A stretch of DNA of 63,423 bases, the filler included, from Folioceros fuciformis (taxonomy: Eukaryota): assembly GCA_049999805.1 (NCBI GenBank). It is 3 parts of 2 records of this genome, joined end to end, with 100 filler letters (N's around TTAATTAATTAA, not from the genome) between each part and the next. Parts side by side here need not be neighbours in the genome. Positions count along the whole stretch, not along the records: positions 28,621 to 56,670 come from JBNGIO010006327.1; 2 more parts are not named here. One strand, 5' to 3'. Made by a program: the position numbers and the translations under genes. The notes beneath the pieces are model-generated. The model was not told where the DNA came from. It saw only the letters and a program-made list of their open reading frames with translations, and ran no database searches. How positions within the stretch are numbered: the first letter of the stretch is position 1; every line of letters starts with the position of its first letter. Shown here piece after piece: positions 33,913-58,765 of this stretch.

Positions 33913-34628
33913 CTCAGGTGGGATGGACTTTTAGCTGCAACGGGGGAGGATGTGTGTCGACTGTGCACAGCTGGGGCCCCAAACAAGAGCCAACACAAGT
34001 TCTATCACTGCAGCTTTGCCCAAGAGATCTGGAGGGAGGTTGGTAGGTGGCTCGGTTTGATTTTTCCTGGTGCTAACCTCAGGATCACGTCACAATTAGC
34101 CTTATTTGGGCTGGACGCAACCTCGGGCAAACCTCTCCTTAAAACACAATGGTGGGGCTTACTGTGGTCTTCTTGCCTTTTCCATCTCTAGGTCAACTGG
34201 TCCACTGTGGTTTATGGAGGACAAGATTCAGCTTCATCGAAAGCCTTGTTGTGGCGCATATGGGAGCATTCGTTGATTGCAGCAGAAGCTTTGGAGCAAT
34301 CCCGTCGGAAGCGGTTTAAGCGGAAAAACTGGAGGATGGCGGGATTCCTAGCGCCTGGGAAAGATACGCATTGGAATCATTCGTGCCCCTAGGGACGGTT
34401 AGCCTTAAAGTCCGTGGGAGACCTTGAGGTGGGAGTATAAGTGGCTTCGGTAGTTCGAGGGTATCATAGTGTAGGGGAGCGCTCTCTGAGCACCTTGTCT
34501 TGAGTTTTGGACTCAAGGCCATTTCTCCCCCTCTCTTCTGGTGCTTGTACATACGCTAGCAGGATTTTCCTTTGTATTGTAGTGGAAGGTACCTGCCAAT
34601 TTAATCAGATTTTTATCGCGAAAAAAAA
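33913..34628 (+). mobile_element. 5'-truncated L1 LINE (zf-RVT, 3' UTR, poly(A)), head-to-head with the first L1
   Basis: RWDGLLAATGEDVCRLC...HKFYHCSFAQEIW is homologous to 29287-29763. A8 tail at 34621-34628. Confidence 0.85.
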
Positions 34629-35452
34629 GCAGGCCCAAGCATACCTTCAATCTTGTTCGGGGAAGGGCGCTGGCTCTTTGCTGTCGGCCCGTCCATGCAT
34701 CCAGGCTTTCCGAATCACACCAGCTTCTTTCTTTACCGTGCTGAGGTTTTGCCTTGGCTTGGTCCAAGCATTGGTCCGGTCTCTCTCTTCTTATAGCTAT
34801 GGGGTCCTTCTCGACAACCCTAGGAGCCACCTAGCGCGCTGCCCTATTGGCGGGTACCGCCTTCCATAATGCAGTGAGAGATGATATGTTTTCTTTGGCC
34901 AAGGAGGGTGGCTTCTTCCCCTACAAGGAGCGCCCATATACATTGCTAAATGACGTCTTCCTCATTGCAGACCTTTTCCTGAGCAAGGGGGACTAGGCTT
35001 CTAAAGCGGATCTAGTGGTTATAGACCCCACTCGGACAACCATTAGCGATCATGTCGATATCAACCCCCGGTTTGGGCAGTAGAAGGAAGCGCGACAAGG
35101 AAGACTTGCAAGTACAGGCCCATGCAACAGGGTCACTTGTTCATCCCCTTGCTATTGAAACGCATGGGGCCATGGGTAAGGATTTTTCCAAGTTTTTGAA
35201 GACATGCGTGAAGGCCTATCACATCAGCAGGAGCGGCGTAGGGCTTCCCCTATCCGGCGCGGTGGCATTTTACCGGCAACGGGTTTCGATTGCGCTACAA
35301 AAGGCCTTGGCAATTGCAATTTTTTGGACAACATCAAGCACGGTGGATGTGACTTCAACGGCCCCAGTGGTAAGTGGGCCATACCTTATACTGACATCTT
35401 AGGGGCAATAGGGAGTTACATGCTAGGCGGACGAGGGGGTTAGGCCCCCATT
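34629..35452 (+). mobile_element. 3' fragment of a CRE-clade-like non-LTR retrotransposon with a restriction-like endonuclease, decayed
   Basis: LQSCSGKGAGSLLSARP...LRFCLG, HLARC...H.AVRD, ADLFL...DLVVIDP, PLAIETHGAMG and RQRVSIALQKALA occur in the order typical of CRE/MoTeR C-termini. Confidence 0.75.
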
Positions 35453-37116
35453 CTTCACTTTCCCCATTGCGAGTTGTTCCCCTGTCATGGGTAGATGGAA
35501 CTTCCATCTCTTTTCTTTCTATAAAGTCTTCGGGTTCTCTTAGCTAGATGTTGATAGTGGTCTAAGTACTCATACACCACTTGTTGATGTGAAGGGTACT
35601 TCTTAGAAAATGTAGTCCATGAAAATATTTTTTAAAAATATGTACATGTGCACATTAGGATTATTCCCTTTTGTTTTCAAATGAGCTTTTGAATCTCGAT
35701 TGACAATTGCTTGCAACATATTAATTAGAAACTAAAATGATGTTATCTTGGGTGGATATTTGGAGCTGGCTTGTCAAGGCGGATCTATCCTCACTTGGCA
35801 CAACAAACTCAGGTAAGTAGCCCTCCACTATGGTATCTTGCTGTCCACTGATACTTCTACCAAGGAAATGGGACTAAGGGGCCAATAGCCCCAAATAAGA
35901 ACACTTACAAGAGAAATTGTAAAGAGCAAGGATAAACATTTGGGCTAGCTTCGTTACAATTGGCTCAAGGGCATGAAAAAGTAAGCACACACACCTTAAG
36001 CACATAGGGCAACTTCTTTTATAGTTGGCTCGAAGGATTTTGATGCCTTTCTCTGCAAAAAAGAGGGAGCAGTGCAATAAAAACCTTATGTATAAATACT
36101 TGGAAGGTTCTAGAGGCTAGCACTAATTTGTGGGCCTTCCTTCAAATTAGCACTAATTTGTGCGATAGGACCTTATGATGTGGCCATCTCCTCAACCTGC
36201 TACTAGCACTACCAACAGCCTCTACCATCCCTTGTAGTTAGGCCTTGGCTACACTCTTGTTATGGCCCCACCTATAAGACTCCATAGTGATCTTGGAGCG
36301 GCGGCTACTAATGCTTACTCGTGATATGGGAGACTCCTTTGATCCAAGCACAATAGGGAGGGTCTCGAAGCCTTCCCTTGGCCCCATCTTAAGGAGCTGG
36401 ACTAAGGGGGAGGGTTTTGGAGGATGGATCAAAGCTCCCTCGAATCGGATCAGTGTCATGTTAGAAAACCCTGAGCTAGATATATGTTGCTGGTCCATAT
36501 GTCCTTCTTCGACCTTAGGTAAAGCTAATAAACCTACCACTGTCAGAGGCTTCTACGATGTCCTTATCACCTCTTGCAGTATTCTAATTATCTCTAGTGA
36601 GCTGAGCGTAACTTGTTGGCCTGTCTATCCTTCTTCAACCTCGGGTAGAGCTAACATACCTAGAGGCTCCTCAAAAGCCTCTCTCACCTCCTATAGGATT
36701 ATGACTATCTCCCCATGATAAAAGGAGAAGTTATTCTTAACCCACTTAAGTTTGTTCATCACATGATTCATCTTAGATGAGGATACCAAGCTTATTTTGG
36801 CGAATCTAATGTTTGAGCCCCCCAAATACTTGAAGTGTAGACAAAGCAAATGAATCATGGTTCTAAAGACGTAAGTTCTTGTCTTGCATGTTGATGAGTC
36901 AAAAGCTAGGTTACAAAGTGTAAGATGTAATTAGCACTGAGCAAGAATAGCATGTCCTCTTAGGCTCGCATCCGTTCTTGTTAAGGAAAGAGAGCTAACT
37001 CATGGCTTTTGGCTTAGCCTTGCATTTAGGTGTTCCAAATGCAAGGCTAAGCCCTAATGATATTCCGCATATGTTTGGTCCATCCTTTGGCCTTTTCTCT
37101 ATCCATGTAGGGCACA

Positions 37117-37381
37117 TAGTAACCACTCCGGAACCTAGAGTTGGGGTGCTCAAATAGAAAGTGTAAAGGCTAGCATTAACTACTCCGTGACCTCGAAATT
37201 GAGGTGCTCCACTAGCATTAACTGTTATGGGACCTTGAGTTGGGGTGCTCCAATAGAAGATGTGAAGGCTAGCACTAACTAGTCCGGGACCCTAAGTTGG
37301 GGTTCTCCAAAAGGAGATGTGAAGGATAGCATTAATTACTTTGGGACCCTGAGTTGGGCTGCTCCAATAGAAAATGTGAAC
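37117..37381. repeat. Degenerate 57-bp tandem repeat, about 4.7 copies
   Basis: TAGCATTAACT....GGGACCCTGAGTTGGGGTGCTCCAATAGAAGATGTGAAGG units start near 37117, 37171, 37213, 37270 and 37327. Confidence 0.85.
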
Positions 37382-37776
37382 CCTTCAAACTGAGAAAATA
37401 AGTGAATTTTATCTGCTACGTTCCTATCAAATTGTTTTATGATGACTTCTAAACGATTATATATGTTGAATTCATGAAAATAAATACGGGCATCGAGGAG
37501 CGCTTTTGAGTTACGTGCAAAGAAGTTGCAGAGGGCCAGCGATTTAATTTTTTTAGGTTGATTAATCCGGTAAGCTAGTGAGGACTGGGAAGCGTGGACT
37601 GTGGAGCGTCCTCACTGGAGCTGAGAGTGGAGCGCCCGAAGGCCGAGGAAGGGTGGACGAGAAGGCAAGCCAGAATTGAAAGCGCGGGATGTGAGCGGCT
37701 GCAGGATCTAGAGCACTATGTGCGAGTCGTACAGCCGGATGCATCTGAAACGATGTAGCAACGTTGTGAATTTGTC

Positions 37777-39063
37777 ATGGCCCGAACGAAACCGCCAAGG
37801 CCAACAGCAGTTCACAATCCAGATCCCGCAACAGTCTGGCGTAGGGATATGATCTTGGCCGAGAAGCTGAAACTTAGTGGTGATTTGCAAGCGCTGCCGC
37901 CATCCCAGCTGCAAAGAGTGGCGGATTTCCTCAAGGCCCGGTTTCCTGCTCTTTGCAAAAAATTCCCAGATGGTCATGAGGAGGTCTACGTTAACCTCGG
38001 AACATTTGACAATGAAATTCTGTGGGAGCTGCGGGGATTTGCTCCCAATGCCGAGGAGAAGAGACAGCCCTTGGAGGTGCAAGCGCGTGGTGGTAAATCC
38101 CACCGGAAAGGCCAGGTTAGCGCCGATTTCGTTCTTTCCCGCCTCGGTCTGTATGATTTGGATTTTGCCGTGTCTTTTTTTTTTCGGTCCAGCTTGGCAA
38201 TTTCTTGGATATGTGAGGTGTCCCTTCACCGCGAGGTATTCCCTGTCCCGTCCAACCTCGAGCTGCCTCAGCTTTAGCGCGCGCCACGAGTTGGCGTCTG
38301 AGTATGTTGATCATGAAGATCAACTCAGTGATCTCCCGGCGACTGAGAATTCAGTGTTTCATCCCGCTTCATTGCACGCTTCCTGGCAGGAGCCAATTGC
38401 CTCTGCCGGGAGGTGCTGATTGTTGTCTGCTAGCCAGTTTGATTTCATGTTAGCCAAATTTTGACAACAGGCCTTTCCTTTTCCGATGTGTAGAAGGACA
38501 AGAAGAGGCAGTTGGAGAAGGTCAATGTTCAAGAGAAGACAAGTGCTCCATCCGTGCCGCAGGATGAAAGCCGGGAACGAGTTCAGCAGCTGCAGGGTGA
38601 GAAGCAGCATGATGCGCAGATTCCAGCTCAGGAGCAGGTCATGGAGGACCACGATTCGCAGACTCAAGCTGAGGATCAGGATGTGGAGATGCATGATGCG
38701 AAGGAGTATCAGGAAACGGTGGATCAGGATGATCAAGTTCAAGCTGACCATCACATCAACAACAGTGCCAGCGAGATTGGCTTTGCAAATCTTTGGCAGG
38801 CCCCGGCTGGTTTTAGGCCTATAGGCTCCAAAGTAGAGACTCAGCAAAGGCCACTGACCGCTGACGAGGAGGACGAACTGGTTAAGGCCGTGGAAGCGCT
38901 ACCTAGTCACATGCTTGAGAAAGTTGCCGAAATTGTCAGCAGGTGCAATCCTCAATTGTTTCCAGAGGAAGATGAGCTTGAGGTCGACCTTCACTTATGC
39001 AACATGCAGACGCTTGTTGAGCTATCTGATCTGGTGGCAGAATATAATTTAAGCAAACAGTAG
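37777..39063 (+). CDS. Protein with two extra-terminal (ET/NET) domains and no bromodomain, about 300 aa. Simplest model 37777-38115 + 38494-39063; middle splicing uncertain
   Basis: RRDMILAEKLKLSGDLQALPPSQLQRVADFL...EEVYVNLGTFDNEILWELRGF and RPLTADEEDELVKAVEALPSHMLEKVAEIV...DELEVDLHLCNMQTLVELSDLV both fit the ET consensus. Phase-0 GT-AG junction. Confidence 0.75.
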
Positions 39064-40953
39064 GAGAACGGCAACTTGACTACTTGCATCATCCTGGCCG
39101 GAGAAGTGTCGTTCTGCAGCCGGTTTGATGATCGAAGGTGCTGCCGGTACACAATCATCCTTCACTACTGTCTCCTCTTGAAGAACGAACATCCTTATGC
39201 AGTGGCTATGGTGTGGTTCTTGGAGATGTTCACGTTGGTAACTGATGATGCCTGATGCTCCCCTCATCTCGCTCCCTATGAGCGCAGCTCAAAGTCTCTT
39301 GCGCCTTAAACAGGGCCTGTTACCCGGCTTCATCCTCCAAGCTTGGAAAACAGCCTAATCTGCCTCCAGGTTTTGTATCTGCCAAAGCAACTTGGCCAGT
39401 TGCCTCATCGCTGTTGGCAACCAAGATGATGGGGATGGAAGATGTATTGATGAGGTACTTCAGACCATCAGCAACGGAACCATGTTATCTCAATGCACTG
39501 GCCAAGCCGAGAATGTCAAAGAGCCGTCCTCGGATCCGTCAGTCCTGCTCTCTGTAACAGACGCCTCTCCGAACTGTGAGACAGAAGCCGCCGAAAGACG
39601 GCCTTTCTTCACTGTCAATCGCGTAAGACGCTACCAGTGAAACCATAACCACCGTGTTCAGGGGCGTAAACAGCAGGCACTCCTGCCCCTCCGAGCTCAC
39701 AAAGGCTTGCCCCATCCCGCACTCCAGCACCCTAGCTATTGCCGCTTCTTCTTGTTGCTGCCGGTCGAATCGCGTTCCTGTTTGCCACGGCCCCACACGG
39801 TCTGCAGTCGCCACGGAGGGCCTGACGGCTTTAGCCTACGCTGTAACTTGGCACCAACTCCGATCCCCGATGGCAAGCTCGGACGACCCGCTCCATCTCC
39901 TTCTCCTAGGGCATGTCCATTTCCACGGCTCGGATTGCTAGCTCTTGGTTGGAAGCCTTCCTCGTACCTTCGCCATCGGCCTTGGTCCATCGTCGCATCT
40001 GCCTTGTCGCGAGCCCGCGCAGTCCGCCCTCTTGTTCCGCCATGTTCCTGCGTCTCCTCGCTGCAGCCTGCTGCTCGGGCATCAAGAGCGAAGTTCATCT
40101 TCACAGCCGTTGCTGGAGCGTTCTTATTCTTGTGTTACCTCATGCGATTGTACAACGACATGCTTCCACACACTGCTCGAAAGTGAGAGCCATATCCCCG
40201 GATTTGTCAGCAAAATTCAAACATTGATTGGTTATGCATTGCTTGCCATCGAACTTTCTCCAAATTTCATCTCAGAGGACCACAGTATCAGATCCATCAA
40301 ACATCATGCCCCTCCCTCCTGCATGGATGCAATTCTACAGGGAGATCCCAGTGCAATCCTCCCTAACTGCAACCATGTCAAGACGGGCGTCATNNNNNNN
40401 NNNNNNNNNNNNNNNNNNNNNNNNNNNNNNNNNNNNNNNNNNNNNNNNNNNNNNNNNNNNNNNNNNNNNNNNNNNNNNNNNNNNNNNNNNNNNACCTTTG
40501 CTGCTCCACGCTAGGGCAGTTTAGATCTACACAAGGCATGACATGAGGGACAAACACGGTTCAGCTACCTTCAGGCAGGCCGACCAACTCGCGCGAGATA
40601 GGCGAGTATGCAACCTTGGCGGCGAATTCGTATATGCACTAGGATCAAGTGTCTACGGAGTGATCGCGTGACGAGGCCACCAGGAGCGCCCCCTCAAATC
40701 TGAAAAATCTCTTGGGCCGGAGTGCCTGGATCGAATATCCCCTTCAGGGTTAGGCATGTCTGCTCAGCAAAATTCAGAGCCAAGTTTCATGGTTAAATCT
40801 GGCATTCTGGAACTTATAAACGTGTCACTTGATATAGAGCCCAGGCACGGGGATGGGTTTTTGAGATGCAGGCTGTCGACGCCTCCGGTTTGAAGGGTTG
40901 GAGCAATCGGTGCAATCAGGCAGTCCTGAGGACGCTCTGCGTAGGAAGCACCC

Positions 40954-43305
40954 ATGTCCTCTCCATCCACAACCACAAGCAGCGGCGCCAGTGTAATTCG
41001 TGATTATGGCGCAAACGCGAGTACCTGTGGCTATTGCAAAAGCTCTACTCGGAGTAGCGTTACGCATGGTGAGTTACACACCGTTCAATTCTCTTTCCTT
41101 GTGATTCTTTCAGGAGGAAGGAATGCGTAATGGCCATTTTATTGGAACACGAGGCAGTCTCGCTTGTGACTGAGCAAGAAAGAAGTGAAGCAAGCTGAAA
41201 GTGAGGCCAGCCGTGTTTGAACTGACAGGGAACTGTCATCTTGGCAGGACTGATGGCCCGCAGTCTGACTGTCCAAGATTATCAAGGTATGCTTCTAGGG
41301 AGGGTATTGGGCTTCATGGCTGAATATTATTGGGATGAGGTCAATACGCTGGATGTGAAAAAGTGCGTCTGCCACTCTGCAGACCTCCTGGATCGAGGGT
41401 GGAGACGAAGTGGAGTGCTTGTGTATAAGCCGAAATTGGCGGGCTCATGTTGTCCCCTTTACACCATCAGGTTGAAGGCAAGCTCGTTTGTTGCATCGAA
41501 GGAACAACTGAGGGTGCTGAGGCGAATGCAACGGTACTGTTGATCTTGACATGTAGCTGTGCTTCACCTTCCCTTTTCCATCTGTGAAGTCGTCTACGAT
41601 GACGAAAGCTCATAGCCAGCCCTTGCTGATTGTCACTACAACATAATAGGTTCCTAGAAGAGGACTACCGGGGTCCTGAAAGCAAAGCTGTATCGGATCC
41701 CGACGAAATGGAAGAGGCATGTGCAAAAGTCTTCAGTGGGGAAACTGGAAAACCTGCTGTGCAAAGCAATAGAATATCAGTTGGTGGACATGACGAGCTG
41801 GAATTGTTCAATGAAACAAGTTCTATTAGAGCAGATCTTTGTGTTGTGATCCAGAAGGCCCTGGAGTCAGTGTTGGAAAGTACTGATGCTCCGAGTGTGG
41901 TAGTGCGGCCAGTTTCTGCATCTTCAAGAGGCAAATGGAAGAATGTGACTGACGATGTGTTATTTACGAGTAGTGTTGCATATGCGGTCGCTGCACAGCT
42001 GAAGAGTAACGGCACAAGGGCAGAAGGTAGCGAGCAGGAAAGGGTTTCTAATCCTTCCCCTACAGAAGTTGCAGAGCTGTTAGTCTCACGGATCGAGAGT
42101 TCACCTTATCTACATGGGTTGCAAGCTCAAGCCAGTAAGGGCCACCTCAATTTTATTCGGGATCATTCTGAAGGCTCAAATGATTTGCTTCCAGTTTGCT
42201 TACCTTGCAAACAATTGCACAGTGCAGATCATTCTGGCTGTAGTAGAAAGGTTCTGCATGCTAATCCAGACAAGTTGCTAAAGAAGCACAAGCTGGAAAT
42301 GAGCATGAGAAGATCAGCATTCGATTCAGAAGAGTTTAATTTATATAGAAAGTATCAGACAAGGGTGCATAATGAAAGACCACAGTCCGTCACAGAGGCC
42401 TCATACAAAAGGTTCCTGGTTACGACTCCCGTCATAGCTGTTCCACCAGCTGAAGACGGCTCTACTCCTTCTTGCGGATTTGGGTCGTTTCATCAGCAAT
42501 ATCGATTGGATGGACAACTGGTGGCGGTTGGAGTGGTGGACATTCTTCCTAACTGCCTTTCTAGCAAGTACCTCTTCTGGAATCCTGATTTTGCGTTTTT
42601 GTCTTTGGGAAAGTTCACAGCATTGCAAGAAATAAAATGGGTGCAACGGGAGCAGAAATTGTGTCCCTCTCTTGAATATTACTACATGGGGTACTACGTA
42701 CATTCATGTCCAAAGATGCGCTACAAGGCTTCTTACAGGCCATCAGAGTTGCTTTGTCCGGCAGACCTCAGGTTTGGTTTGTGGGCACATGTTGTTTATC
42801 GGTGTTGCTCTGGATCAGCTGTTTAGATTGTCTTTATCATGTTAGATGTATCTGACTCCTTCCATTGCTTGCTGGCAGTTGGGTACCGTTCTCTGCTGCT
42901 GAACCTTTGATTGAAGAACGGGCTGTCACTCGTCTCTGTGGTGGAGTCGTCACTTCCGATGGCATGCCCAGTATTAACACTGAGGATGAAGTCGACATAT
43001 TTGACTCTCCCTGTCTTGTCGAAGACATCATCGATGAGGTTCCTTTGATGTTGCGACAAGAAGTCGTATTCCTTAAGGTACGGTCATTCCTATCTTCTGA
43101 GGCCCATGTTTTTGGTGGATAAGTGTCTAAGTCACCGTTGTGTGCACGGCTGAAGCTTTAGTGTCTCATCTTCTGTTCCCGATCTGCGAAGGATTTGAAG
43201 GCTCTCAATGATCATGAAATCATTGCGGATTTATGTGAAGCGCTTAGGCAGTACACGAAGCTTGTGGGGCCTGCCGTTGCTGCAAGGATGTTGTACTGTT
43301 TGTAA
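40954..43305 (+). CDS. ATE1: Arginyl-tRNA--protein transferase, 579 aa. Exons 40954-41068, 41248-41286, 41383-41533, 41650-42771, 42879-43077, 43192-43305
   Basis: CGYCK, LLDRGWRRSG, CCPLYTIRL, GFGSFHQQYRLDGQLVAVGVVDILP and YYYMGYYVHSCPKMRYKA. In-frame splice model of 1740 nt. Confidence 0.95.
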
Positions 43306-44189: not shown

Positions 44190-47015
44190 ATGGCAACCGC
44201 AACACCAGCAGTGAAAGCGGTGCAAAGTCGAGGCAATGCCACAGTCGAGGTTTGGAGTTCTGCTCCTCTTCTCTCCTTTGTTGCATGTTTGCCCATGTCT
44301 GCGAATGGTAATTTGCCGATCTGTTGAGGGGAATTTGTGCTGGCTCTTCGCAGGAGTACCTGGAAAAGCACCAGCTGTCACAACGCATCGAGGACGCTGT
44401 CAATGCTGCAGTTCGAGCGAAGACCACTGAGCCGATTCAGTTTGTTGTACGTACCTGGATCCCACTTGAGCTGGACAGGATGATCTGAGAACTATTCAAG
44501 CGTTGGGTTTTGACTGAAATCCTGTTTGAACAAGTTTGCGGGCCCGCTGTGTAAGATATGTGCGTGGCGCGATCTGCAGGCCAATCACTTGAGAAGGGCA
44601 TTACCCTCCGTCATTCAAAAGGTGAAGGCTCGTCAGATTTTTGACAGCCGTGGCAATCCGACGGTTGAGGTTGACCTCCAGACGAACAAGGGCATCTTCC
44701 GTGCTGCTGTCCCTAGTGGAGCCTCTACGGGAATGTGAGAGACGGCTTGGCTTTTGATTGACTGTCGTTGCTGTAGTAGGCCTGTCCTCTTTCTGGGGGC
44801 TCTGATGGAGAATTGTTTTACACCGGGGCAGTCATGAAGCCGTGGAGCTCAGAGATAAGGAAAAGGACAAGTACCATGGCAAGGGTGTCCTTAAGGCTGT
44901 TGCCAATGTCAACGAGAAAATCAGCCCAGCAATTCAAGGCCTGGACCCGACACAGCAGGCAGAAGTTGATAAAGTTATGATTGACCTAGATGGCACCGAG
45001 AACAAGGTACGTTTGTTTTTTGAATTCCCGCCGATCTCCAGCCGCTGCATTTCCTGCCTTCCGGATGTGTGATCATACCTGTGTTTGAAACGTCTTATGT
45101 AACTGCTATATTGTGATGGCCAACTGGTACATTTGATAAATCTTGTATATTGACATACGACTTCTCAAATTATCGAAGTAGCCCATATTTTTCAGGATCT
45201 AGAGCTGAAAGGGTTATTGCTTTGCAGGCCGAGCTTGGTGCAAATGCTATCCTTGCAGTTTCCCTCGCCGTGGCTAAAGCTGGAGCTGCTGAGAAGGAGG
45301 TACTCAGCTTTGAGATTTGCTTTTTCCTTACTAAGCTGCTTCACGATTGTATCTGGGATTTGCCTTTGTTGCGTTGTGCGTGCCATACTGAACGTATTTA
45401 TTGTTGCAGGTACCTTTGTACCAACACATTGCAGATCTTGCAGGGAACTCAAAGCTTGTACTTCCTGTTCCTGCATTCAATATTATTAATGGTGGAGACC
45501 ATGCTGGCAACAAGCTTGCCTTTCAGGTATCAATCACTTGCTAAAACTAGCAGCGTAGAGTGGGATTGGGAAGGCGTTGGGATGCCTTTCTCACAGCTAC
45601 TTTTCTGTTGGTTCTTTTTGCAGGAGTTTATGATCCTGCCCATTGGAGCCAGTACTTTCACCGAGGCTATGCGGATGGGCTCAGAGACCTACCATCACTT
45701 GAAGGTTAGTAGTAGAATTATGATCACCTGAACTGTGGAGTGGGTGAAAATGTCTGCGCTCATTGTACTGAGTTCTATCCTGCCTGCAGGCTGTGATCAA
45801 GGAGAAATATGGGATAGACGCATGCAATGTTGGTGATGAAGGAGGTTTTGCTCCTAATATCTCCAGGCATGCCCTTGCTAACTCTTAAACATCTTTGAAG
45901 GGTCTTGTATCTGTTTGAGTACCTAACATGGAATTGCACTTTGCAGTACCCAAGAGGGACTGGATTTGATCATTGAAGCAATTGAAAGAGCACACTACAC
46001 TGGCAAAGTCAAGATCGGAATGGACGTTGCTGCCAGCGAATTCCACACAGGTATTTTTCCCCTGTTCAATCAGCAGAGAGTGGCCTGTTTGATGGGATAA
46101 GCAATCCTGTGTTCAGCCCTCGATGCAGCCTAACTGTACACGTCTGGTGCAGAGGACAAGAAGTACGATCTAGGTTACAAAAATCCTGGTGCTTCAGACG
46201 TTAAAACAGGGCAAGAGTTGATTGACTTTTATAAGCAACTCTGTGCCAAGTACCCCATAATATCAATTGAGGATCCCTTTGAGCAGGATGACTGGGCCAA
46301 CACAAAGGCTCTCAACAGTCTCGGCATTGCTCAGGTAAGGTGTCTGGTCTTCTGTTTTCATCTGTTACAGTGTATGGCTACATCCCACTGTTGCAAACCT
46401 CTTTTCTGTGTAGATTGTTGGAGATGACTTACTTGTCACCAACCCCAAAAGAGTACAGAAAGCCATAGCGGACTCTACATGCAATGCCCTCCTGTTGAAG
46501 GTAGGTATACGAGATCCTGGGCTACCTTGCTGAATTGCCGCTTGCTTGCATTGTTTCTGTCTCGCATGTTGAATGTGTACGTGGAGCCTTGCAGGTCAAC
46601 CAGATTGGGACAGTCACGGAGTCTATTGAAGCAGTTAAGATGGCGCAGAAAGCGGGCTGGGGTGTGATGGCTTCCCATAGGAGCGGAGAGACTGAGGACT
46701 CTTTCATTGCTGACCTGGCTGTTGGCCTAGCCACTGGGCAGATCAAGACTGGTGCCCCTTGCAGAAGCGAAAGACTTGCGAAGTACAATCAGGTCGGCAT
46801 TATGTCTTTGCATTCGATTGCAGAAATGACGCTTGTGCCTTGTTGTTAAGCTCTTGACGATTGTCTCGGTTGATGCCGCACGTGCTCTTGGCAATGTACC
46901 TGATAATAGTCGTTTTGTCCAGCTTCTTCGCATCGAGGAAGAATTGGGAGAGAAGGCTGTGTACGCAGGTCGCAGCTGGAGTCCAGCTGCAGCTGTTGAG
47001 GGTGCTACTGAATGA
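44190..47015 (+). CDS. ENO3: Enolase, ENO3/ENOc type, copy 1, 497 aa, 13 exons (44190-44249, 44354-44446, 44580-44734, 44832-45006, 45228-45299, 45410-45526, 45624-45704, 45790-45866, 45947-46050, 46153-46334, 46414-46500, 46595-46792, 46923-47015)
   Basis: [24 protein letters not shown]-terminal domain; [42 protein letters not shown] and SHRSGETED. The EWGWC insert of LOS2-type enolases is absent. The first exon is inferred. Confidence 0.93.
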
Positions 47016-47373
47016 GCCATCTCCTCATCTGCTGGGAAGCAAAGAAACGGGAGAAGTTCAAGGTGTTGAGATTTATTTGAAGCCGTTCTTCTTTCAAACG
47101 AAGGCTCTTAAGCAAAGGAATGATACGCGACTTAACTTAAATGTAATGTTTTGAAGGCCTCGGAGAAGTTTTTTAAGAGGCTGACTCTTTGATTGGCCTA
47201 ATGCAGTCAAAGTTTTGAATATGGCGTCGAATGTTTTGTAAAATGTGAAGGTATTCACTGTGCGGAAATACCATCAAGAAATACACTTGTCGCCTGGCAA
47301 TTGCTTTATATACGAAAATAGGTGTGTGTTTAATCATGAGCCACCATGTGATTTGTGTCAGTTTCTCTCGCAC

Positions 47374-47670
47374 TATGACTTGGAGATGGATGTGGAAAGA
47401 TGTAGAAAGGCGAGATNNNNNNNNNNNNNNNNNNNNNNNNNNNNNNNNNNNNNNNNNNNNNNNNNNNNNNNNNNNNNNNNNNNNNNNNNNNNNNNNNNNN
47501 NNNNNNNNNNNNNNNNATGACTTGGAGATGGATGTGGAAAGATGTAGAAAGGCGAGATGGATACACTATGACTTGGAGATGGATGTGGAAAGATGTAGAA
47601 AGGCGAGATGGATATACAGCGATCACGCTACAACTCTTGGAGGTATGGATGTGGAAAGGTCCACCATGTA
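47374..47670. repeat. 51-bp tandem repeat spanning an N gap
   Basis: ATGACTTGGAGATGGATGTGGAAAGATGTAGAAAGGCGAGATGGATACACT at about 47375, 47517 and 47568. Confidence 0.85.
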
Positions 47671-47758
47671 GAAAGATTCACCACTGAAGTTGAAAAAATT
47701 GGTGCTCTTTGTTCACTTAATACACTGATGTTGAAGAAGTTCTTTGCTAACTAACACT

Positions 47759-48975
47759 CCATTGTGATAAACAACTATATAAGAAAGCAAAAGAACAGTA
47801 TCTTCTGTCGATTGTGATAAGCAAAGCACAAAGCAACTATATAAGAAAGCAGAAGACAAGTATCTGTTGAATTTTTTTTGGATGTGATTGTAGCCAGGAA
47901 ATTGTGGTGAGCATGAGCAAGAGACGTGTAGCACAAAGAGACGTGTAGCACAAACGTGTGTATCTTGAGAAACTGACTGGGTTACATTTGTAGTCATTGA
48001 TGACGGTTTCAACTACCCACCAGCTAATATTTAACCTAAATATAATACATAATACATAAATAATTCTAAAGCTATTTCTTAACAGTATCTTCTGTCGATT
48101 GTGATAAGCAAAACAAAAAGCAATTATATAAGAAAACAGCCACTGGCTAATATTTAACCTAAATATAATACATAATGTATAAATAAGTCTAAAGTTATTT
48201 CTTAACAGTATCTTATGTCGATTGTGATAAGCAAAACATAAAGCAACTATATAAGAAAACAGAAGACACTATAGTATCTTCTATCCATTGTGATAAGCAA
48301 AGCATAAAGCAACTATGTAAGAAAGCAAAATATTAGTAGTATCTTTTGTCCATTGTGATAAGCTCTTCAATCGAAAGAAAGCAATTATGTAAGAAAAGGG
48401 AAGACTAACCCCTATCTTGTGGCTTTAATATAATGCGAAATGATCTAATCATTGCTATGGTGTGGTGCAAGTCATGTGAAGAACATGTCATGCATAATTG
48501 TGTGTTATGTCATAGGTGCATGCAAACAGTATGTAATTAATAATAATATATACTTATAAATTCTTGGTTCTTGATAAAATGATAGAATATAAAGTCAACA
48601 TGATAGACACAAAAGAGAACTAAATTTGTGGCCTTAGTTAGAACAAGTATGAAATACAAGGCATAAAAGCTAGTTTGGTGGTGTTTGCTGCAACATTAAG
48701 CTTGTATTTTCCTAGTGGAATCTAATTGAGCTACATGTACAAGATTGTGTGACCCTATTATGCCTTATAAAACCCAAGTTAGAACTTTAGGAAGTGTGGA
48801 TGCATATATATGGATTTGTATGGTGAGATAAGAAAGCATATAAGCTATAACTTCAAGAAAGTGTGAATGCATGTATATGGGTTTGCACGGTGACATAAGG
48901 AAGCACCTCAAGTAGAACTTCAAGAAGTGTGGATGCATATATATGGGTTTGCAAGATGACATAAAGAAGCATATG
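47759..48975. repeat. AT-rich degenerate repeat arrays in the inter-enolase spacer, probably a non-coding transposon relic
   Basis: ATTGTGATAAGCAAA..AAAGCAACTATATAAGAAA about 6 times (47759-48400). AGAACTTCAAGAAGTGTGGATGCATATATATGG 3 times (about 48780-48975). Confidence 0.75.
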
Positions 48976-50560
48976 CTTTTACTATTACAGAGCTAGCACT
49001 AGCTTGCAAATAATAAATGTGTGCATTGTGTGGTGTGGTGGAAATATTTTAATTAAATAGTTTATTAATATCACTAATACTATTAGGATAACTTAATTAT
49101 TAAGTAATTATTATTTACATGCAGTTAGCCAACACACAATTATGCTTGACAGTTGTAAAAAAGTAATAGATGTGATAGTAGTAAAGGTGGTTGGTGCAAG
49201 GACAAGACCTATCTACATGTACTAGCCAAAAGCCAAGCACTAGCCAAGAGCTAAGCACTTGCACACTTACTAAAAGACAAATGAAGTTGAGCTTCATGGG
49301 GCTAGGGATAGAAGAGTCCATATTAAGGATGATGGATTAGAAAACCTTGGTTAACTTCGTTTTGTATTGTGAATAGTTATTACTAGCCCTTTAAAACTAT
49401 GAGAGACGAAATGTGAAATGGGCTCCATATATCATGATGGACAGTGCCACTTAGCTTGTTTGGCTTGAAGATAGAAGTTCTACTTTGCTCCTTTCTCAAC
49501 TTTAAGGTATTGGCATAAAATATATCCCCAATCTAGCTTGGGACTAGGATATATGAAGGGATAAGGTTCTCTTCTCCTTCAATTAGAATGGGAGAATGAT
49601 ACAACCACAAAAAGTGCAAGGTTACAAGAGGAAAAAATATGAAATCTCATATACCTAAAAGCAAAGCAAATAACAATTTGGATTGCACCAAGCTAATAAT
49701 AATTATCTCTCCTAATTGATCAATTTAAAAATACATTTTTGCCAACAAACACTCAAGAGGGCATAAGCCAAGAGGGATAATGATTATGATGGCAAATTCT
49801 AAAACCCACTTGCTAACCAAGACAAGCCACCACAAAAGAACAAGAAAAGACCTAACCCATTCGTGAGGTCGTGATAGGCCTTAATACAGCCAACTAGAAG
49901 CTATGAGAATGCACACAAACCCCATAAATCTAGATGGTGAGACGATGAATACATGCTGACACATACATAGGTTTGGACTCCTAGATTCTTTGCATTTTAT
50001 GCATTCTTGTGTAAGCCATCCCAAGGGATTGCTAGTGACCTCACTAAAGAATATTGCTTTTTTGGTGTGAGTATCAAAAGAAAAAAAAAACTTTTGGTCG
50101 AAAATATGATGCAAGGTTTTCATTAATTTATAGTAATTTATGTCAAGTGTCGCACAAGGTTGCTGTCCAAATCCCCAAGGGGTGCATCCTAAAGTACCAC
50201 TTGTACGGAAAAGATTCTACTACTTGTATACTAAAATATTATTGAAAATAATATCAGTAATAAAGTAAAATTATTGAGCAGAAAATAAGTAAAAGAATTA
50301 AAAAAAAACCTCGAGCAGAATACGTGGAAAAATTATGAGAAAATCGTCGAAGCATACCGGGAAGAAAAGCTGGGGAAAATGTTCGAAGCGCAACGTTGGG
50401 CTTAAAATGAATGCTGAAGCGTCTCGTATCATCACCAATGTCTTTGCTTTAGGTGACGAAAGACAAGTATAAGTTTATGTTGAGGAAGTCACGATAATGG
50501 CGACGTGGCTCATGTGTAAATCTACCTTCGATTCAATGCGTTGTCAAAAACCTTGGATTT

Positions 50561-53500
50561 CTACTTCTTGTCCTTCTCTTTAGACTTAGATGCCTTGTCT
50601 TTCTTTTCCTCTGGCTGAGGCTGTTCTTCCGAGCTCCCAGCCGTAGGTGGTGGTGCTTTAGACTGTGCATTTGGCCTCCAGTTCTCACCAGCATACAGGG
50701 CCTTATCTCCCAATTCTTCTTCGATCCGAAGAAGCTGAAGTAGAAAACCTAGTGGGTGAATGCGAGGCGCAGCTACCCTGAAAACAATCCGGCGAGAGTA
50801 TTTCCGGGGTAGTTTGAACATACCTGATTGTACTTCGCAAGTCGCTCACTTCTACACGGCGCACCCGTCTTTATCTGGCCAGTACCTAAACCGACAGACA
50901 AATCTGCAATGAAAGAGTCTTCAGTCTCCCCACTTCTGTGAGAGGCCATGACACCCCAACCTGCAGCTTTCGCCATTTTCACCGCTTCAATGGATTCAGT
51001 GACCGTTCCGATCTGATTGACCTGCTTCCAGACGAAATAGACTGTGAGCACTGCGAGCCTGACTTGAAATGGAGACCACAGAACAACGGGTAGCCCTTTC
51101 ACCTTGAGCAGAAGCGCGTTGCAGGTGTTGTCGGCGATGGCCTTTTCCACCCGTTTCGGATTTGTGACAAGCAAATCATCACCGACAACCTGCGAGAAAG
51201 AAAGCCCAGCATTTGATCAAATGAGAGGAAGGAACTCCTTGGATGCACTACAGCTCACAGTTACCCAAAAAAACTACCTGACAAATACCAAGACTGGTTA
51301 ATGACTTTGTGTTGGCCCAGTCATCCTGTTCGAACGGATCCTCAATTGACACAATAGGGTAGTCTGCATCAAACAGAGGGAAAACTTATCTTGACAGCCA
51401 TCCTATGGGACAAAAGCCATCAATCAAATCCCGGCAGCCAAGGACAGCAAGTTGTCAGCGTCAGTTGAAAATGTTGCGTGCCTGTACAGAGCTGTTTGTA
51501 CATTTCTATCATTTCATCTCCTGTTTTCTTCTGCTCTCCTCCACTATCTGGATTCTTGAAATCCAGGTCGTACTTTTTATCATCTGCTACGACTCCACGA
51601 CTCAAATGTTGAGAAATGGTATTCATCGAGACAGATGGACATGTACAAATCAAGTCACAGCAACTGGACATGAACCTGTGTAAAATTCACTAGCAGCAAC
51701 ATCCATCCCGATTTGAACTTTGCCTTTGTAATCTGCTCGTTCAATAGCCTCTACGATCAAGTCAAGCCCCTCTTTGCTACTGCAGAGAAAACCCTTTCCT
51801 TTCAGCCCAAAAGAGTATAACTTCAACAATGAAAACGTGTAAGTTCAAAACTTTCATACCTGGAGATATTGGGCGCGAATCCCCCTTCATCACCAACATT
51901 GCAAGCATCTATCCCATACTTCTCTTTAATTACCGCCTGTAATGTGGACTTGTATAGGTTAATTGAGACCTAACTTGACTGTAATTCCTGATCCTCAGCA
52001 CCTTCACACCCAGCATCACCTTGAGATGGTGGTATGTCTCGGAACCCATGCGCATGGCTTCCACAAAGGTGCGGGCTCCAACTGGTAGAATCATGAATTC
52101 CTATGACATGTAGATCACAATGGGTGACAAAAGAGTAAATAGACTTCGATAGTCCATCCCGATGTAACATTTCTTTTCCTGTCTAGCTTCGAGTCATGTA
52201 TGGTGAATTTTGTCGGTTCTAATTTGTCAAGTGATTTGAGTCACCTATTATTTCATTTGCTTGTGCTACGGTGAATCTTTGTTGCGATGATCCCTCAAAG
52301 TTAGTAAATCAAAATGAATTCCAACCGAGCCGAGTATATATATACCTGGAACGCAAGCTTATTCCCAGCATGTTCTCCACCATTGATGATGTTGAACGCT
52401 GGGACGGGAAGGACTAGTTTGGTATTCCGTGCAATATCTGCAATGTGTTGATACAACGGCACCTGCATAACACATTAAAGACAAATGAAGAGAGAACAAG
52501 TATTCAAAGAAAGATTTGAAGGTTTGCAAGCTAGAGCTCAGTCAGAGCACAAGAATGTATATGCAATGAAATTCAAGTGGTGAAGGCCAACCGCTGCATG
52601 GTACCTCCTTCTCTGCAGCTCCAGCTTTGCAGACAGCCAAAGATACCGCAAGGATTGCATTTGCGCCAAGCTCAGCCTGCAGAGGGTGTCAAGAGATCTC
52701 AATACTTTCAAAGGATCAACTGACCAGCAACGGATCAGATTTCTGTTCCTCAAGGTCTACAAAGGTGTGAGACCTACCTTGTTCTCTGTTTTGTCCAGGT
52801 CAATCATGACTTTATCAATTTCAGCCTGTTGAGTTGGATCCATGCCATAGAGTGCCGGATGGATTCTTTCATTGACATTAGCCACAGCTTTAAGAACGCC
52901 CTTCCCCATGTATCTGTCTTTCTCGTTGTCCCGGAGCTCAACAGCTTCATGGCTGGCAAACGAAAGACAAATGGGAATGAATGATGACTTGGCCCAAAGG
53001 GAACACTCAAAATGGACTCCAGCACCACTTTTCCGAAACGAAACTGAACTGAACTGCATACATTCCGGTGGAAGCTCCGCTAGGAACTGCAGCCCGGAAC
53101 CTGCCCTTATTTGTCTGAAGATCTACTTCAACTGTGGGATTTCCGCGACTGTCAAAGATTTGCCGAGCCTTCACCTTCTGTATGACTGATGGCATTGCCT
53201 TCTTCAAGTGATTGGACTGCACAGACATTTGTGCGCAACTTACTCAGCAGGAGTGTGGACTGTATCAACCGGTTACAGTTCAAACAGGGCACATATACAG
53301 AACTTGGACACCACTCGCAGGTACCAACAAGAATTTCCTAAAAATCTTTGCAGTTATAAAGTTAGATGCGGTGCGCAAACTACCGCAAGATATCCTCTTC
53401 TCACAGCATACAAATCTCTATGCACAGAGACAGCTCATTTGCTGAAATTGACCGTGAAGCAACTGTGCCAAGAACGTGGAGAATGACAATACTGACAATA

Positions 53501-54604: not shown

Positions 54605-56623
54605 TCAATCTATTTCTCCTTCCTCTACGTCTCCCGCATCACCATTCTCCTCCACTTTGAGAGAGGGGTCATCCCGGTGTTCCTCCTCTTCTTCTTCGTC
54701 TTGGCGCATAAAAAGGCCTAATTGTTCTAAAGGTCTAATGCCAGGGCCACCAAAATTTGGACGACCCTCCGGAGATCCATCTGGACTACCATCTTCACCT
54801 GAGCTGGGGAGATCCAGCTGTGTAGTTCCCATCCTCTCCAGATCTTTCAAAATTTCTGAGTTCTCATCTATCTCAACAGTCTTCTCCATCTGCTCATCCC
54901 AAGGAGAGCATTAACATTTGCGAAACAGCAAAGGCGTCTAGACATCAATGCTCGTTCACATCTACCTAGTATGCTACACAAGTTGTACATGCTGACCTGT
55001 TGAAGGGCTACACGGGCAGCTTCTCTCTCGGCCTCCCTCTTCCGAAGCTGCTCAGCAAGAGCTTCGGCCTGTGCCTTTTTCCTGGCAGCCTCGGCAGCTT
55101 TCGCTTCAGCTTGCAGCCGAGCTTTCTCTGCAGGGGTGTGCTGCTGCTTGCTTAGAGAACTTCGTGGATTCCCAACCACAGGAATACACCAGATAACTGA
55201 AGTAAAGTAACACGACCCCACTACCAAATATACCTTCTCTCTGGCGTTTTTCCATTTCCTCTCGTTCTCTCTTCATCTTCTCGGGATCAACCTTCTCACC
55301 CTGTGCAGAAACTATGCACATTAGCGTAACATTAGGCATCGCTACAACCGGACAGATGACTTAACACGGCAAGGATTACCTTGCTAGAGGGACATGTCTT
55401 TTCTTGAGCTTTCAGAATGGTATCCGCAAACCGATCCCTCATTCTGGCAGCCCGCAGCAACTTCTCAGGGGAGAGTTGCCTCTCAGGTGGAACATCTGGA
55501 GAGCCTTGCCTGTCACCACCGGAACCAGGTGACACTTGTGCCTCTGTTGCTGGACGGGGTGAGGTATCGGAGCCCCGAGGGGCCAGAGAATTTCCAGCTG
55601 TTGCAGGTGAACATCGTTCAACCAGTGCAGTGACAGATGAACTCTTCTCAGCGGGCTTGCAGAATTTGAAAGAGCGAGAATCAACAACTAGAGGTGAACA
55701 ACTCCCATGACTTCTATTCTCGGCAGCTTCAGACAAGATTCCCCCTCTGCCAGATACTACTTCACCTACACCACATCACACCAGAGGGTAAGAACAGCTG
55801 GCGGTGCTCGAGCAATTAGACAACAAGGCCACTCATCTACAAAAGCAGACCTCCATTGGCATCCTGTTCCCGAGAATCCACTGGCGCCAGGCCTGTGCCC
55901 TTCACACTATGAGTCTCAGCGGCAGAGCTGCCCACTTGGTCACAGACGGTGCCTGAACCCAAGGGTTCCTGCAGGAGCGGCAGTGCAGAGAAACAACACC
56001 CTCAGCCTCATCTACAACAGCTATCCACTAGCACTATGATGACAGCACACGATTGTCCCTGCTACCCAATAGACCCACACATACTACATCTCCTCCGGGA
56101 TCCCACAGAGCAGCAACAAACAAACCTTGTTCTGTGGCGAGCCCTTGGCACCTCCCTCAACAGACTGGGCTTCGTCTACATCAGAGTCACTGCCTGATGA
56201 GCTGCCGGAATCTGAATCTGAGGGCCAAATTACCGAGTTAGAGCACAGGCAACACCAGCTAGACGAGGGAGACACAACACACCGACCCCAAGATGAGCGG
56301 CAAATCAAAGGAAGCCACCCAGGAGAAGACTCTTACCACTGTCAGAAGATCCCGAGTCACTGCCTGAGCTGCTAGAACTGCTGGACTTCGCACCAAATGC
56401 TGCGGCATCCTTATCTACCTCAACTGCAGGAAACTGAGCAGAGGGGGCATCGTCACCATCGATATCAACCTCTTCCTCCCCACCCTCACCTGCATGAAGT
56501 AATGTAAGTAGTGAGTTGTGTGCGAGGACAGCGGCAGGAAAATGTCCAACAAAAATAAAAGGGCACTACCAACTCACCTTTCCGTGCTTTCTTGGGAGTC
56601 TCTCCAGTCACGGTGGCAGGCGC
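54605..56623 (-). CDS. 3' half of a GTE8/9/10-like BET-family transcription factor; bromodomain and ET exons are not in the window
   Basis: EEEVDIDGDD...FPAVEVDKD plus Ser tract, ERQLSPEKLLRAARMRDRFADTILKAQEK, REAEREAARVALQQMEKTVEIDEN, PLEQLGLFM and DVEEGEID*. Canonical introns. Confidence 0.88.
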
Positions 56624-56770
56624 CTGCAGCATCACCCACAGCAATGAGATTTAAAATACAACATAGTGCTNNNNNNNNNNNNNNNNNNNNNNNNNNNNNN
56701 NNNNNNNNNNNNNNTTAATTAATTAANNNNNNNNNNNNNNNNNNNNNNNNNNNNNNNNNNNNNNNNNNNN

Positions 56771-58765
56771 AAATGTCCAGGTATTCGGCACCAATGACAA
56801 GTGCCTTTCTTCTTCTGACCAGGTGCAAACGAAGTTAATACAGGATAAGGACGGCCACGTCCTCGACCTCGTCCTCTACCACGGCCACGCTGGGTGTAGA
56901 GAACTTGAGTATTATGCTGTTGCTGACCGCGCCCGGTAGCAACTCTACTAGACTCCTCCTCTAGCAGTGCGCCGACTACTTGAGAGAAGGTAATATTTGC
57001 ACCTGCTTGATTAGCGAAATTTGTTTGGGTTGTCACAAAAGCTCGATAGCTACGTGGCAAAGAGATGAGAAGGACTGTGATAGCCTTCATCTCCGTCAAA
57101 ATGTCACCTCCAGTTGCCAACCTCGCACGAAGAGTGCGAAATCTGTGTAGGTGATTCTCCACACTGTCTGTCTCCTTCATTCGAAGGCCATAAAGTTGTC
57201 TTGTAGCATTGATAAGCGACATGCCGTCCTTGGCGGCGAACATGTCCTTAAACACCAGCCATATTCCAGCAGAAGTAGTTTGCCCATAAGTATGCTGAAG
57301 CATATTCTTGTCAAGTGCTGAAATGAGGATGCAACGTGCCCTCTTATCTAACTTAATCCAGGCTTGTATTTCAGGGTCTGTCCCTTTTGGAACAGTTAAA
57401 GCTGGATTCACTGTCTTTCCAGTGACAATATCTAGGAGTTCATACTCCTCAAAGATGGCCTCCATTCGAAGCTCCCAAGAAGGATAATCTGTCCCGTTAA
57501 ACCTGTCTTTATCCTTGATTTCAATTTTAATAGTGTTATTGATTGTTGTGCTCGTTGCCATGGGTAAAGGGTTTGGATTTTGATTCGGTGATGGGTAGGG
57601 AAAACGAGGTGTCCTGGGGTATCTGTATGGAGGTGACCACATACCGCTGTTGAGAGGTGCTGTGAACCTAACCTGCTGTCTAAGTGCTAAAGGATTGAGG
57701 ACTCATTGTCATGATCAAACATCTTCGCAAGTGAACCTAAGATATGTTCTATGGGTTCAGGTACATCCTTCAGGCCAAATGATTGAGCAGAAAGTGAGAC
57801 ATCTGAAAGCGTAGGTTCCGGAGGCCTTGGGCTGGAAACGTGTGAGTGTCTAGTTAATTGGTCTAGAGTGTGAATGGCCTGAGACAATTTCTTGTGCAGG
57901 AGGGCTATTTGCTTCAGCAATTGTACTTGATCTTTTCTGTAGGACTGATTAGACAAAAGTGCTTGGTCTATTAAGAAGCCTACTGTAGATTTCAAGTGCT
58001 TTATTAAAAAATGGTCTTATGGACAGGTTACAAAATAGGTAGAAGGTGGATGGCGAGCCTGAGGCCTATCCAGCGCTCGCTGGACATTGCAACAATGGCA
58101 GCGGGAACAGGGCTGAGAAAATCCCAATTGAAAAGGATGTTGGTGAGCACAAAACCTGTCCTTATTTCTATTCTTGTTTCGCGTCATCGTGCTGTAGATA
58201 TCAGTGTGAGCGCCTCTGATTGCGCTCCCATCTCCTAATGTCTCGCTAGTATTATAAGAGAGAATCAAAATAAGCTCACTTCTCCTGTTCTTGCCAGGGA
58301 GTGCTCAAGGGAGGTGCTATCCAGATTGGGTAAGATAATGCAGCATACTCCATGTTCACTCGCTCTACAATCCTCGAAAGAAAATGCGAATAGTTGCCGC
58401 CCAAGATTTAATCCAGAAAATGGATGTGAATACAGATGCCTAGGGTTTGATACACAATCATCTGTAGACATTCAAATCTGCCGCAAGGAGAGGGCAGACC
58501 TCATGCCAAGAGGGACCCCAACACGCTCAGATGGCTCTGATAGCATATTGTAATTGCGTCATCGCAACCCAGAATGATGCATAGTTCATGTGGAGAGCGG
58601 GAGAGACACCGAGCACGAGAGCACAAAACTAATTACTGCAATTAGGGCTTTTGTGTCATAAATAATGTATTTTACGAAACTGATTACTTAACCTAAAATG
58701 CTACCAAACACTAATATTGTTTAAATACGAGTTAGAGTCTGCATAACTAAACGTGTACTCCAACA
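56771..58765 (-). mobile_element. Copia D downstream unit: LTR 58765-58549, PBS-like TGCTATCAGAGCC (58545-58533), about 0.9-kb leader, gag running to the gap
   Basis: 217-bp TG..CA LTR. Gag frame 57642-56771. 56771-57402 looks identical to 62792-63423. Confidence 0.9.

Follow-up and report, generated by a model that had tools for sequence, protein, structure and literature searches.

A spliced gene encoding two ET domains and no detectable bromodomain in Folioceros fuciformis

Structure and transcription of the gene

The double-ET locus of Folioceros fuciformis is a real spliced gene rather than a gene fragment. Within the window, i.e. the whole stretch of 63,423 nucleotides that was analysed, it spans positions 37777-39063 on the plus strand, and its coding exons (37777-38115 and 38494-39063) join into a stop-free frame encoding a 302-aa protein, in which a first ET domain (ET1), a basic patch, an acidic Gln/Glu/Asp repeat linker and a second ET domain (ET2) follow one another. 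Exon 1 supplies 113 codons, which cover ET1 and run into the basic patch, and the coding part of exon 2 supplies 189 codons and the stop, with a phase 0 GT..AG intron of 378 nt (38116-38493, plus strand) between them. The gene is single-copy in the genome.

Transcript evidence consisted of assembled contigs from 4 of 21 runs (X1, X2, X7 and X14), with X2 and X7 derived from organism B and X14 from organism C. None of the runs is recorded as RNA and their RNA nature is a guess, with splicing shown by the GT..AG skip. The intron was spliced out in frame in contigs of three of the four runs, which come from three organisms and three studies: the X1 contig, which begins at 37634 and has no differing letters, skips precisely the 378 nt, and the X7 and X14 contigs, about 6% different in exon 1 with no gap there, skip the same intron (net 375 nt) in frame. 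The X2 contig retains it. The 5' ends of the contigs lie at 37602 (X14), 37634 (X1) and 37654 (X7), i.e. 120-175 nt before the ATG, and one X2 piece starts at 37562, giving a transcribed 5' leader of 37562-37776 on the plus strand. An in-frame stop at 37756-37758, just before the ATG, is covered unspliced in all four runs, such that no upstream exon could be joined in frame on these molecules. A first-pass annotation of this DNA had described both domains as divergent yet stop-free and had questioned whether they are transcribed and joined; the joined 302-aa frame holds no stop, and the contigs splice the exons in frame and read through the stop before the ATG. The possibility of two separate pseudogenes was ruled out, as both ET domains are spliced in frame.

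The leader contains four upstream ATGs, two of which open an overlapping out-of-frame ORF, and these may dampen translation. In one low-depth X2 contig, roughly 90 letters upstream of 37562 do not align and adjoin an acceptor-like site; they may represent diverged DNA or an exon that is not translated. At the other end, the same contigs cover a stretch past the stop (39064-40390, plus strand) that has no Pfam or Rfam match and carries frame-breaking indels in the other organisms, for which a 3' UTR and an overlapping transcript are candidate readings. Contigs at 39064-40956 extend at least 1.3 kb beyond the stop towards a same-strand ATE1 gene, and one X7 contig has a total length of 4618 nt, possibly indicative of a long 3' UTR, an overlapping transcript or read-through. 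In organism B (X2, X7), the similarity of some contigs at 38853-38909 is limited to the first helix of ET2, beyond which they diverge, and an acceptor-like site precedes the match in one of them; an extra paralogue and a chimera are candidate readings, and no counterpart of such a paralogue was found in the F. fuciformis genome.

Two divergent ET domains

The first-pass annotation proposed a Pfam scan and AlphaFold modelling as checks of domain identity, and both came out in favour of ET. Against the Pfam BET/ET model PF17035, with a cut-off of 24.5 bits, ET1 (37855-38040, plus strand; aa 27-88) scored 39.9 bits (E 4.5e-10) and ET2 (38851-39039, plus strand; aa 233-295, or aa 120-182 of the exon-2 frame) scored 44.1 bits (E 2.3e-11). 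Both halves were modelled by AlphaFold2 as three-helix ET folds with pLDDT in the 70s-80s over both domains, from models that were built on GTE alignments and therefore lean towards ET. In Foldseek, the top seven rows for each domain were BRD2/3/4 ET structures at a probability of at least 0.99, with none at E 0.001. Both domains also keep the conserved hydrophobic core that, with the three-helix fold, characterises an ET domain: 252 reference ETs, mostly of the GTE4/8-type, share 20 columns that are hydrophobic in at least 90% of them, and each domain retains all 20 (Ala and Cys counted). They are 25% identical to each other, and their median identity to the 252 reference ETs is 37% for ET1 and 33% for ET2.

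Between the domains, the basic patch (38053-38529, plus strand; aa 93-125) spans the splice junction and contains 11 K/R residues, from which we infer a putative nuclear localisation signal. The acidic Gln/Glu/Asp linker (38530-38769, plus strand; aa 126-205) contains 21 D/E and 16 Q and holds three repeats at a spacing of 42 nt (14 aa); its length varies between organisms and its rate of change is near-neutral. In organism B (X2, X7) the repeat number differs at 38554-38734, where the joints skip or go back across several short contigs. The order of ET, acidic Gln/Asp/Glu linker and ET given in the first-pass annotation thus agrees with both the Pfam matches and the linker composition.

As judged from the four alternating acidic strand positions of alpha2-alpha3, matched to the yeast positions by inference from their alternating pattern, the two domains are unequal: ET1 has lost three of the four acidic ligand-strand positions, retaining one, and ET2 retains three. 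Among the reference ETs (n=252), four acidic positions are present in 241, three in 8 and two in 3, with none having fewer than two. The ET1 loop additionally carries a four-residue insert that is modelled as a beta-hairpin (strands 60-62 and 68-70). ET2 has a strongly acidic surface (net charge near -12), with only 2 of 10 conserved basic columns retained and the conserved Trp missing. A symmetric bivalent adaptor was ruled out, since the ligand strands of ET1 and ET2 differ. The ET of the genome's GTE1-like gene (L004 1498-1647, G000:C6164) likewise has two of four acidic strand residues.

Domain content relative to known ET proteins

The genome-wide Pfam search for PF00439 gave 11 matches among 15 candidates, none of them on the gene's contig, and a profile of 242 GTE bromodomains run against 2592 six-frame segments of the window gave a best E of 8.7. 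Together with the in-frame leader stop, these results uphold the earlier description of the protein as bromodomain-less. Neither the exons nor the 32 scanned frames of the window gave a YEATS match, and the exons gave no GATA match. In the reading frames flanking the gene, Pfam matched LINE remnants and ATE1 alone, and Rfam gave nothing in 36000-41200.

The protein consequently departs from the recognised ET architectures. In the accessible part of PMC10451976, BET membership is defined by a bromodomain together with an ET; here there is no bromodomain N-terminal to an ET, and there are two ETs rather than the single ET per protein of the BET/GTE layout. The premise of the first-pass annotation, that an ET normally occurs with a bromodomain or a YEATS domain, was too strong, since the accessible text of PMC10693065 describes an ET paired with a GATA finger in grapevine VviGATA7, and a BET domain in AT3G27420 and AT5G40600, which are not GATAs. 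Like these three proteins, the double-ET protein has ET without the GTE architecture, but it does not share their layout of a long N-terminal region followed by one ET, as ET1 starts at aa 27 with no such region before it. AT3G27420 and AT5G40600 are not known to carry a bromodomain. VviGATA7 has one C-terminal GTE1-like ET behind a long N-terminal region with the GATA finger, whereas ET1 appears by eye nearer to the GTE4/8-type overall; the VviGATA7 strand is partly de-acidified and, also by eye, shares a short His-Val-Asn-Leu with ET1 of organisms B and C.

With the GTE8/9/11-like group, represented by the genome's own gene (C6895 and 54605-56625), Marchantia MpBromo5 and Physcomitrium GTE9-like, the double-ET protein shares the PF17035 ET fold and family and a basic patch after the ET, with 36-38% ET identity to the own gene. 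It differs from that group in the lack of a bromodomain, a Ser-rich region and a C-terminal coiled region, and in having two ETs, very long branches and an altered ET1 acidic strand. The yeast Taf14 ET dimer in NuA3 serves as a working analogy: as far as the accessible text of PMC11196586 goes, its two ETs, each with an alpha2-alpha3 hairpin such as that modelled for ET1, sandwich or bridge two motifs. Taf14 is not a family member, having a YEATS domain, dimerising in trans and sharing 15-22% identity. In Drosophila, BET function is split between complementing proteins, tBRD-1 and tBRD-2, but each partner keeps its bromodomain (accessible parts of PMC4345279 and PMC4177214).

Genomic neighbourhood and origin

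Four of six genome-wide ET candidates were ET matches, namely the double-ET gene twice, a GTE1-like gene, and a bromodomain+ET exon of a GTE8/9-like gene on the orphan contig C6895. The 3' exons of a GTE8/9-like BET gene lie at 54605-56625 on the minus strand of the same contig as the double-ET gene, 15.5 kb away, in agreement with the GTE8-like gene that had been reported about 16 kb off. The N-terminal half of P0050, a complete relative, matches C6895 (339 aa at 70%) and the C-terminal half matches 54961-56625, so the C6895 exon and the 3' exons in the window are probably one GTE8/9-like gene. This gene is split by the assembly (54605-56670 and G000:C6895), with its 3' exons at a contig end. 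Among named proteins, its closest relatives come from liverworts (53-55%), followed by those of lycophytes and mosses, which points to a non-seed land plant.

From sequence comparison, the double-ET gene probably arose by partial duplication of this GTE8/9-like gene. The sole non-self genome match of either exon is the GTE8/9-like exon on C6895, and exon 2 ranks its own GTE8/9-like gene 1st of 250 (157 vs 147). Exon 1 ranks it 84th of 250, and this rank and the ET tree, which leaves ET1 and ET2 unplaced on end branches of 2.0 and 3.6 vs a median of 0.066, weaken the parentage. The pre-ET part of exon 1 was marginal against the own GTE (56 of 2000 shuffles). A stretch of 49 nt in the leader (37695-37743, plus strand), 75% identical, may be a remnant of GTE8/9-like N-terminal coding sequence; this match is weak (34 vs 26 for the best of 144 control windows; 2 of 300 shuffles) and is one of nine comparisons.

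Copia and LINE remnants lie upstream of the double-ET gene. Capture by a transposon was rejected given the single copy and the absence of inverted terminal repeats in 34000-41200, where no inverted pairs of at least 18 nt were found. Just upstream of the promoter region, 36954-37380 holds a short dispersed repeat, approximately 70% alike at 10 other genome places, and a 57-nt tandem array. Elsewhere in the window, two convergent enolase genes occupy approximately 45000-53200 (Enolase_C matches on both strands), and a Copia-bearing contig is placed after the gap next to the GTE8/9-like 3' exons, with a second Copia gag start at 56722-57702 and a Copia element at 59233-63423 on the minus strand that has one long open frame of 1397 aa (gag, protease, integrase and RT).

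Conservation and selection

Estimates of omega cover exon 1 and the linker and rest on 38 coding substitutions among the 40 listed of 299 differences. Exon 1 had 7 synonymous and 9 non-synonymous substitutions, giving an omega of about 0.40 that was not significant (p 0.064), and the linker had 5 and 17, giving an omega of 0.84. All 12 of the indels among those listed, of 37 in total, fall after the stop, with some pieces gapped in the repeat linker. Together with the retained cores, this pattern of substitutions and indels suggests selection on the fold and frame. The dN/dS check proposed at the first pass therefore yielded a trend to constraint in exon 1, one that stays short of significance and does not extend to the linker.

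The double-ET gene is lineage-restricted, transcribed and single-copy, with no orthologue found in two large protein collections. None of 301 candidates was an orthologue of exon 2, and a search with exon 1 across 1.84 billion representatives gave 51 matches, 49 of them with an ET and none above 43% identity. In metagenomes, 322 pattern matches were obtained and none was confirmed as an orthologue. An ET-profile search of 8000 candidates of 287-2000 aa, in which flank columns spoil the ranking of two-ET proteins, returned only bromodomain+ET proteins among the best 120 of 1121. ET clusters in the ESM Atlas scored 0.86-0.90 and serve as leads only; a 62-aa cluster there, 71% viral and mostly Nucleocytoviricota, scored 0.77-0.83 against both ET halves, likewise a lead only, to possible ET-like proteins in giant viruses.

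Beside the double-ET gene, two of 250 ET-bearing proteins have two ETs. In P0041 a bromodomain is present and the second ET is an exact repeat. P0036, an unnamed protein of 200 aa without a bromodomain, has one full ET and the C-terminal part only of a second; its placement among the GTE4-type ETs of seed plants makes it look independent, and it may be only a fragment.

Discussion

We give an even chance to the reading of the protein as an asymmetric adaptor that came from partial duplication of the GTE8/9-like gene, lost the bromodomain and has two ETs. By this reading, the basic patch would take the protein to the nucleus, where the acidic loop of ET2 would take up, by beta-strand addition, the ordinary basic-hydrophobic ET motifs of factors that act in transcription or remodelling, and ET1, with its de-acidified strand and inserted hairpin, would bind motifs of a different and more hydrophobic class. 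Being flexible, the acidic linker would let the protein tether two partners, and the adaptor would be independent of acetylation, reaching chromatin through a partner. Precedents in known systems fit these proposed steps. According to the accessible part of PMC13373324, an ET recognises basic-hydrophobic motifs, which line up as a beta-strand along its acidic alpha2-alpha3 loop, and BET function in yeast transcription is carried by the ET more than by the bromodomains. The adaptor reading is supported by the partial rescue of BET loss by an isolated yeast ET and by the Taf14 precedent, by the Pfam matches, the splicing in three of four runs, the complete cores, the position of the listed indels, the modelled folds and the omega of exon 1. 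It is weakened by the few basic columns and missing Trp of ET2, by the upstream ATGs, and by ET1, which may simply be inactive. Of the bivalent adaptor put forward in the first-pass annotation, the architecture and the adaptor idea thus hold up and the symmetry does not. A bolder form is speculative and rather doubtful: the covalently joined, asymmetric ETs would connect one chromatin or transcription complex to a different one without acetylation reading, with ET1 switched to a hairpin of the Taf14 kind and to a new class of motif.

A possible alternative is that ET2 alone binds and titrates partners away from GTE proteins, with ET1 inert, self-occluded by its hairpin or structural. The single acidic position of ET1, against a minimum of two in the reference ETs, and the absence of any chromatin-reading domain are consistent with such a modulator or decoy, as is the lethality in yeast of losing three or more of the four alternating acidic residues (PMC13373324, accessible part), which equally tells against an active ET1. 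However, in the same source the overexpression of an isolated ET in yeast changed the activity of very few genes, gave a partial rescue of BET depletion and was not dominant-negative, and this weakens the dominant-negative decoy of the first-pass annotation. The core of ET1 is also intact, with a trend towards purifying selection, and reduced acidic strands occur in other plant ETs, namely the genome's GTE1-like ET and, by eye, VviGATA7 (two of four each), whose Arabidopsis gene pairs have a Ka/Ks of 0.32-0.39 (PMC10693065, accessible part). We regard this monovalent role as rather improbable. It is unlikely that the gene is a duplicate that is transcribed but, with selection relaxed, has hardly any function or none, its frame surviving by youth or weak constraint. 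The very long tree branches, the linker omega and exon 1 p value, the upstream ATGs, the retained intron in X2 and the lack of an orthologue in either search all lean that way, but they are set against a stop-free frame despite approximately 60-65% divergence from GTE ETs at the amino-acid level, two intact hydrophobic cores, splicing of the same in-frame intron in three organisms that differ by about 6% in exon 1, and the confinement of the listed indels to the stretch after the stop.

The remaining explanations carry far less weight. The ETs could bind retroelement integrase tails, much as BET ETs bind the gammaretroviral integrase, and thereby steer or block integration, and the nearby Copia and LINE remnants and the fast divergence would fit this; a BRD4 ET-MLV integrase structure was among the top fold matches, but reflects the ET fold only. 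Proximity to elements, the sole support for the transposon-interacting factor proposed at the first pass, is common in the window, there are no terminal repeats around the single-copy gene, and positive selection was not seen among the sites compared, making this role very unlikely. Least probable of all, and close to negligible, is that a longer bromodomain gene ends in these two exons, its upstream exons having been missed: the unaligned X2 letters beside the acceptor-like site, the unread far upstream part of the contig and the fragmented assembly leave room for it, but the leader stop is unspliced in all four runs and no bromodomain was detected in the window or on the contig.

To our knowledge, plant ET ligands are poorly known. 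Plant proteins that have a single ET and are not GTE readers have been published before, and the two-ET bromodomain-less architecture is new as far as the literature was searched, i.e. titles and abstract openings, with subscription papers outside the scope; no description of such a protein was found there, and the accessible part of PMC10030601 does not mention an ET-only protein. As no orthologue was found elsewhere, the reach of the finding looks narrow, limiting its general importance. Within that reach, a natural two-ET-only protein, kept and spliced in three related organisms, offers a direct test of ET-only function, and its differently tuned ETs a test of how the acidic strand sets specificity. 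If the proposed switch of ET1 is true, it would be a natural test of the roles of ET domains apart from bromodomains.
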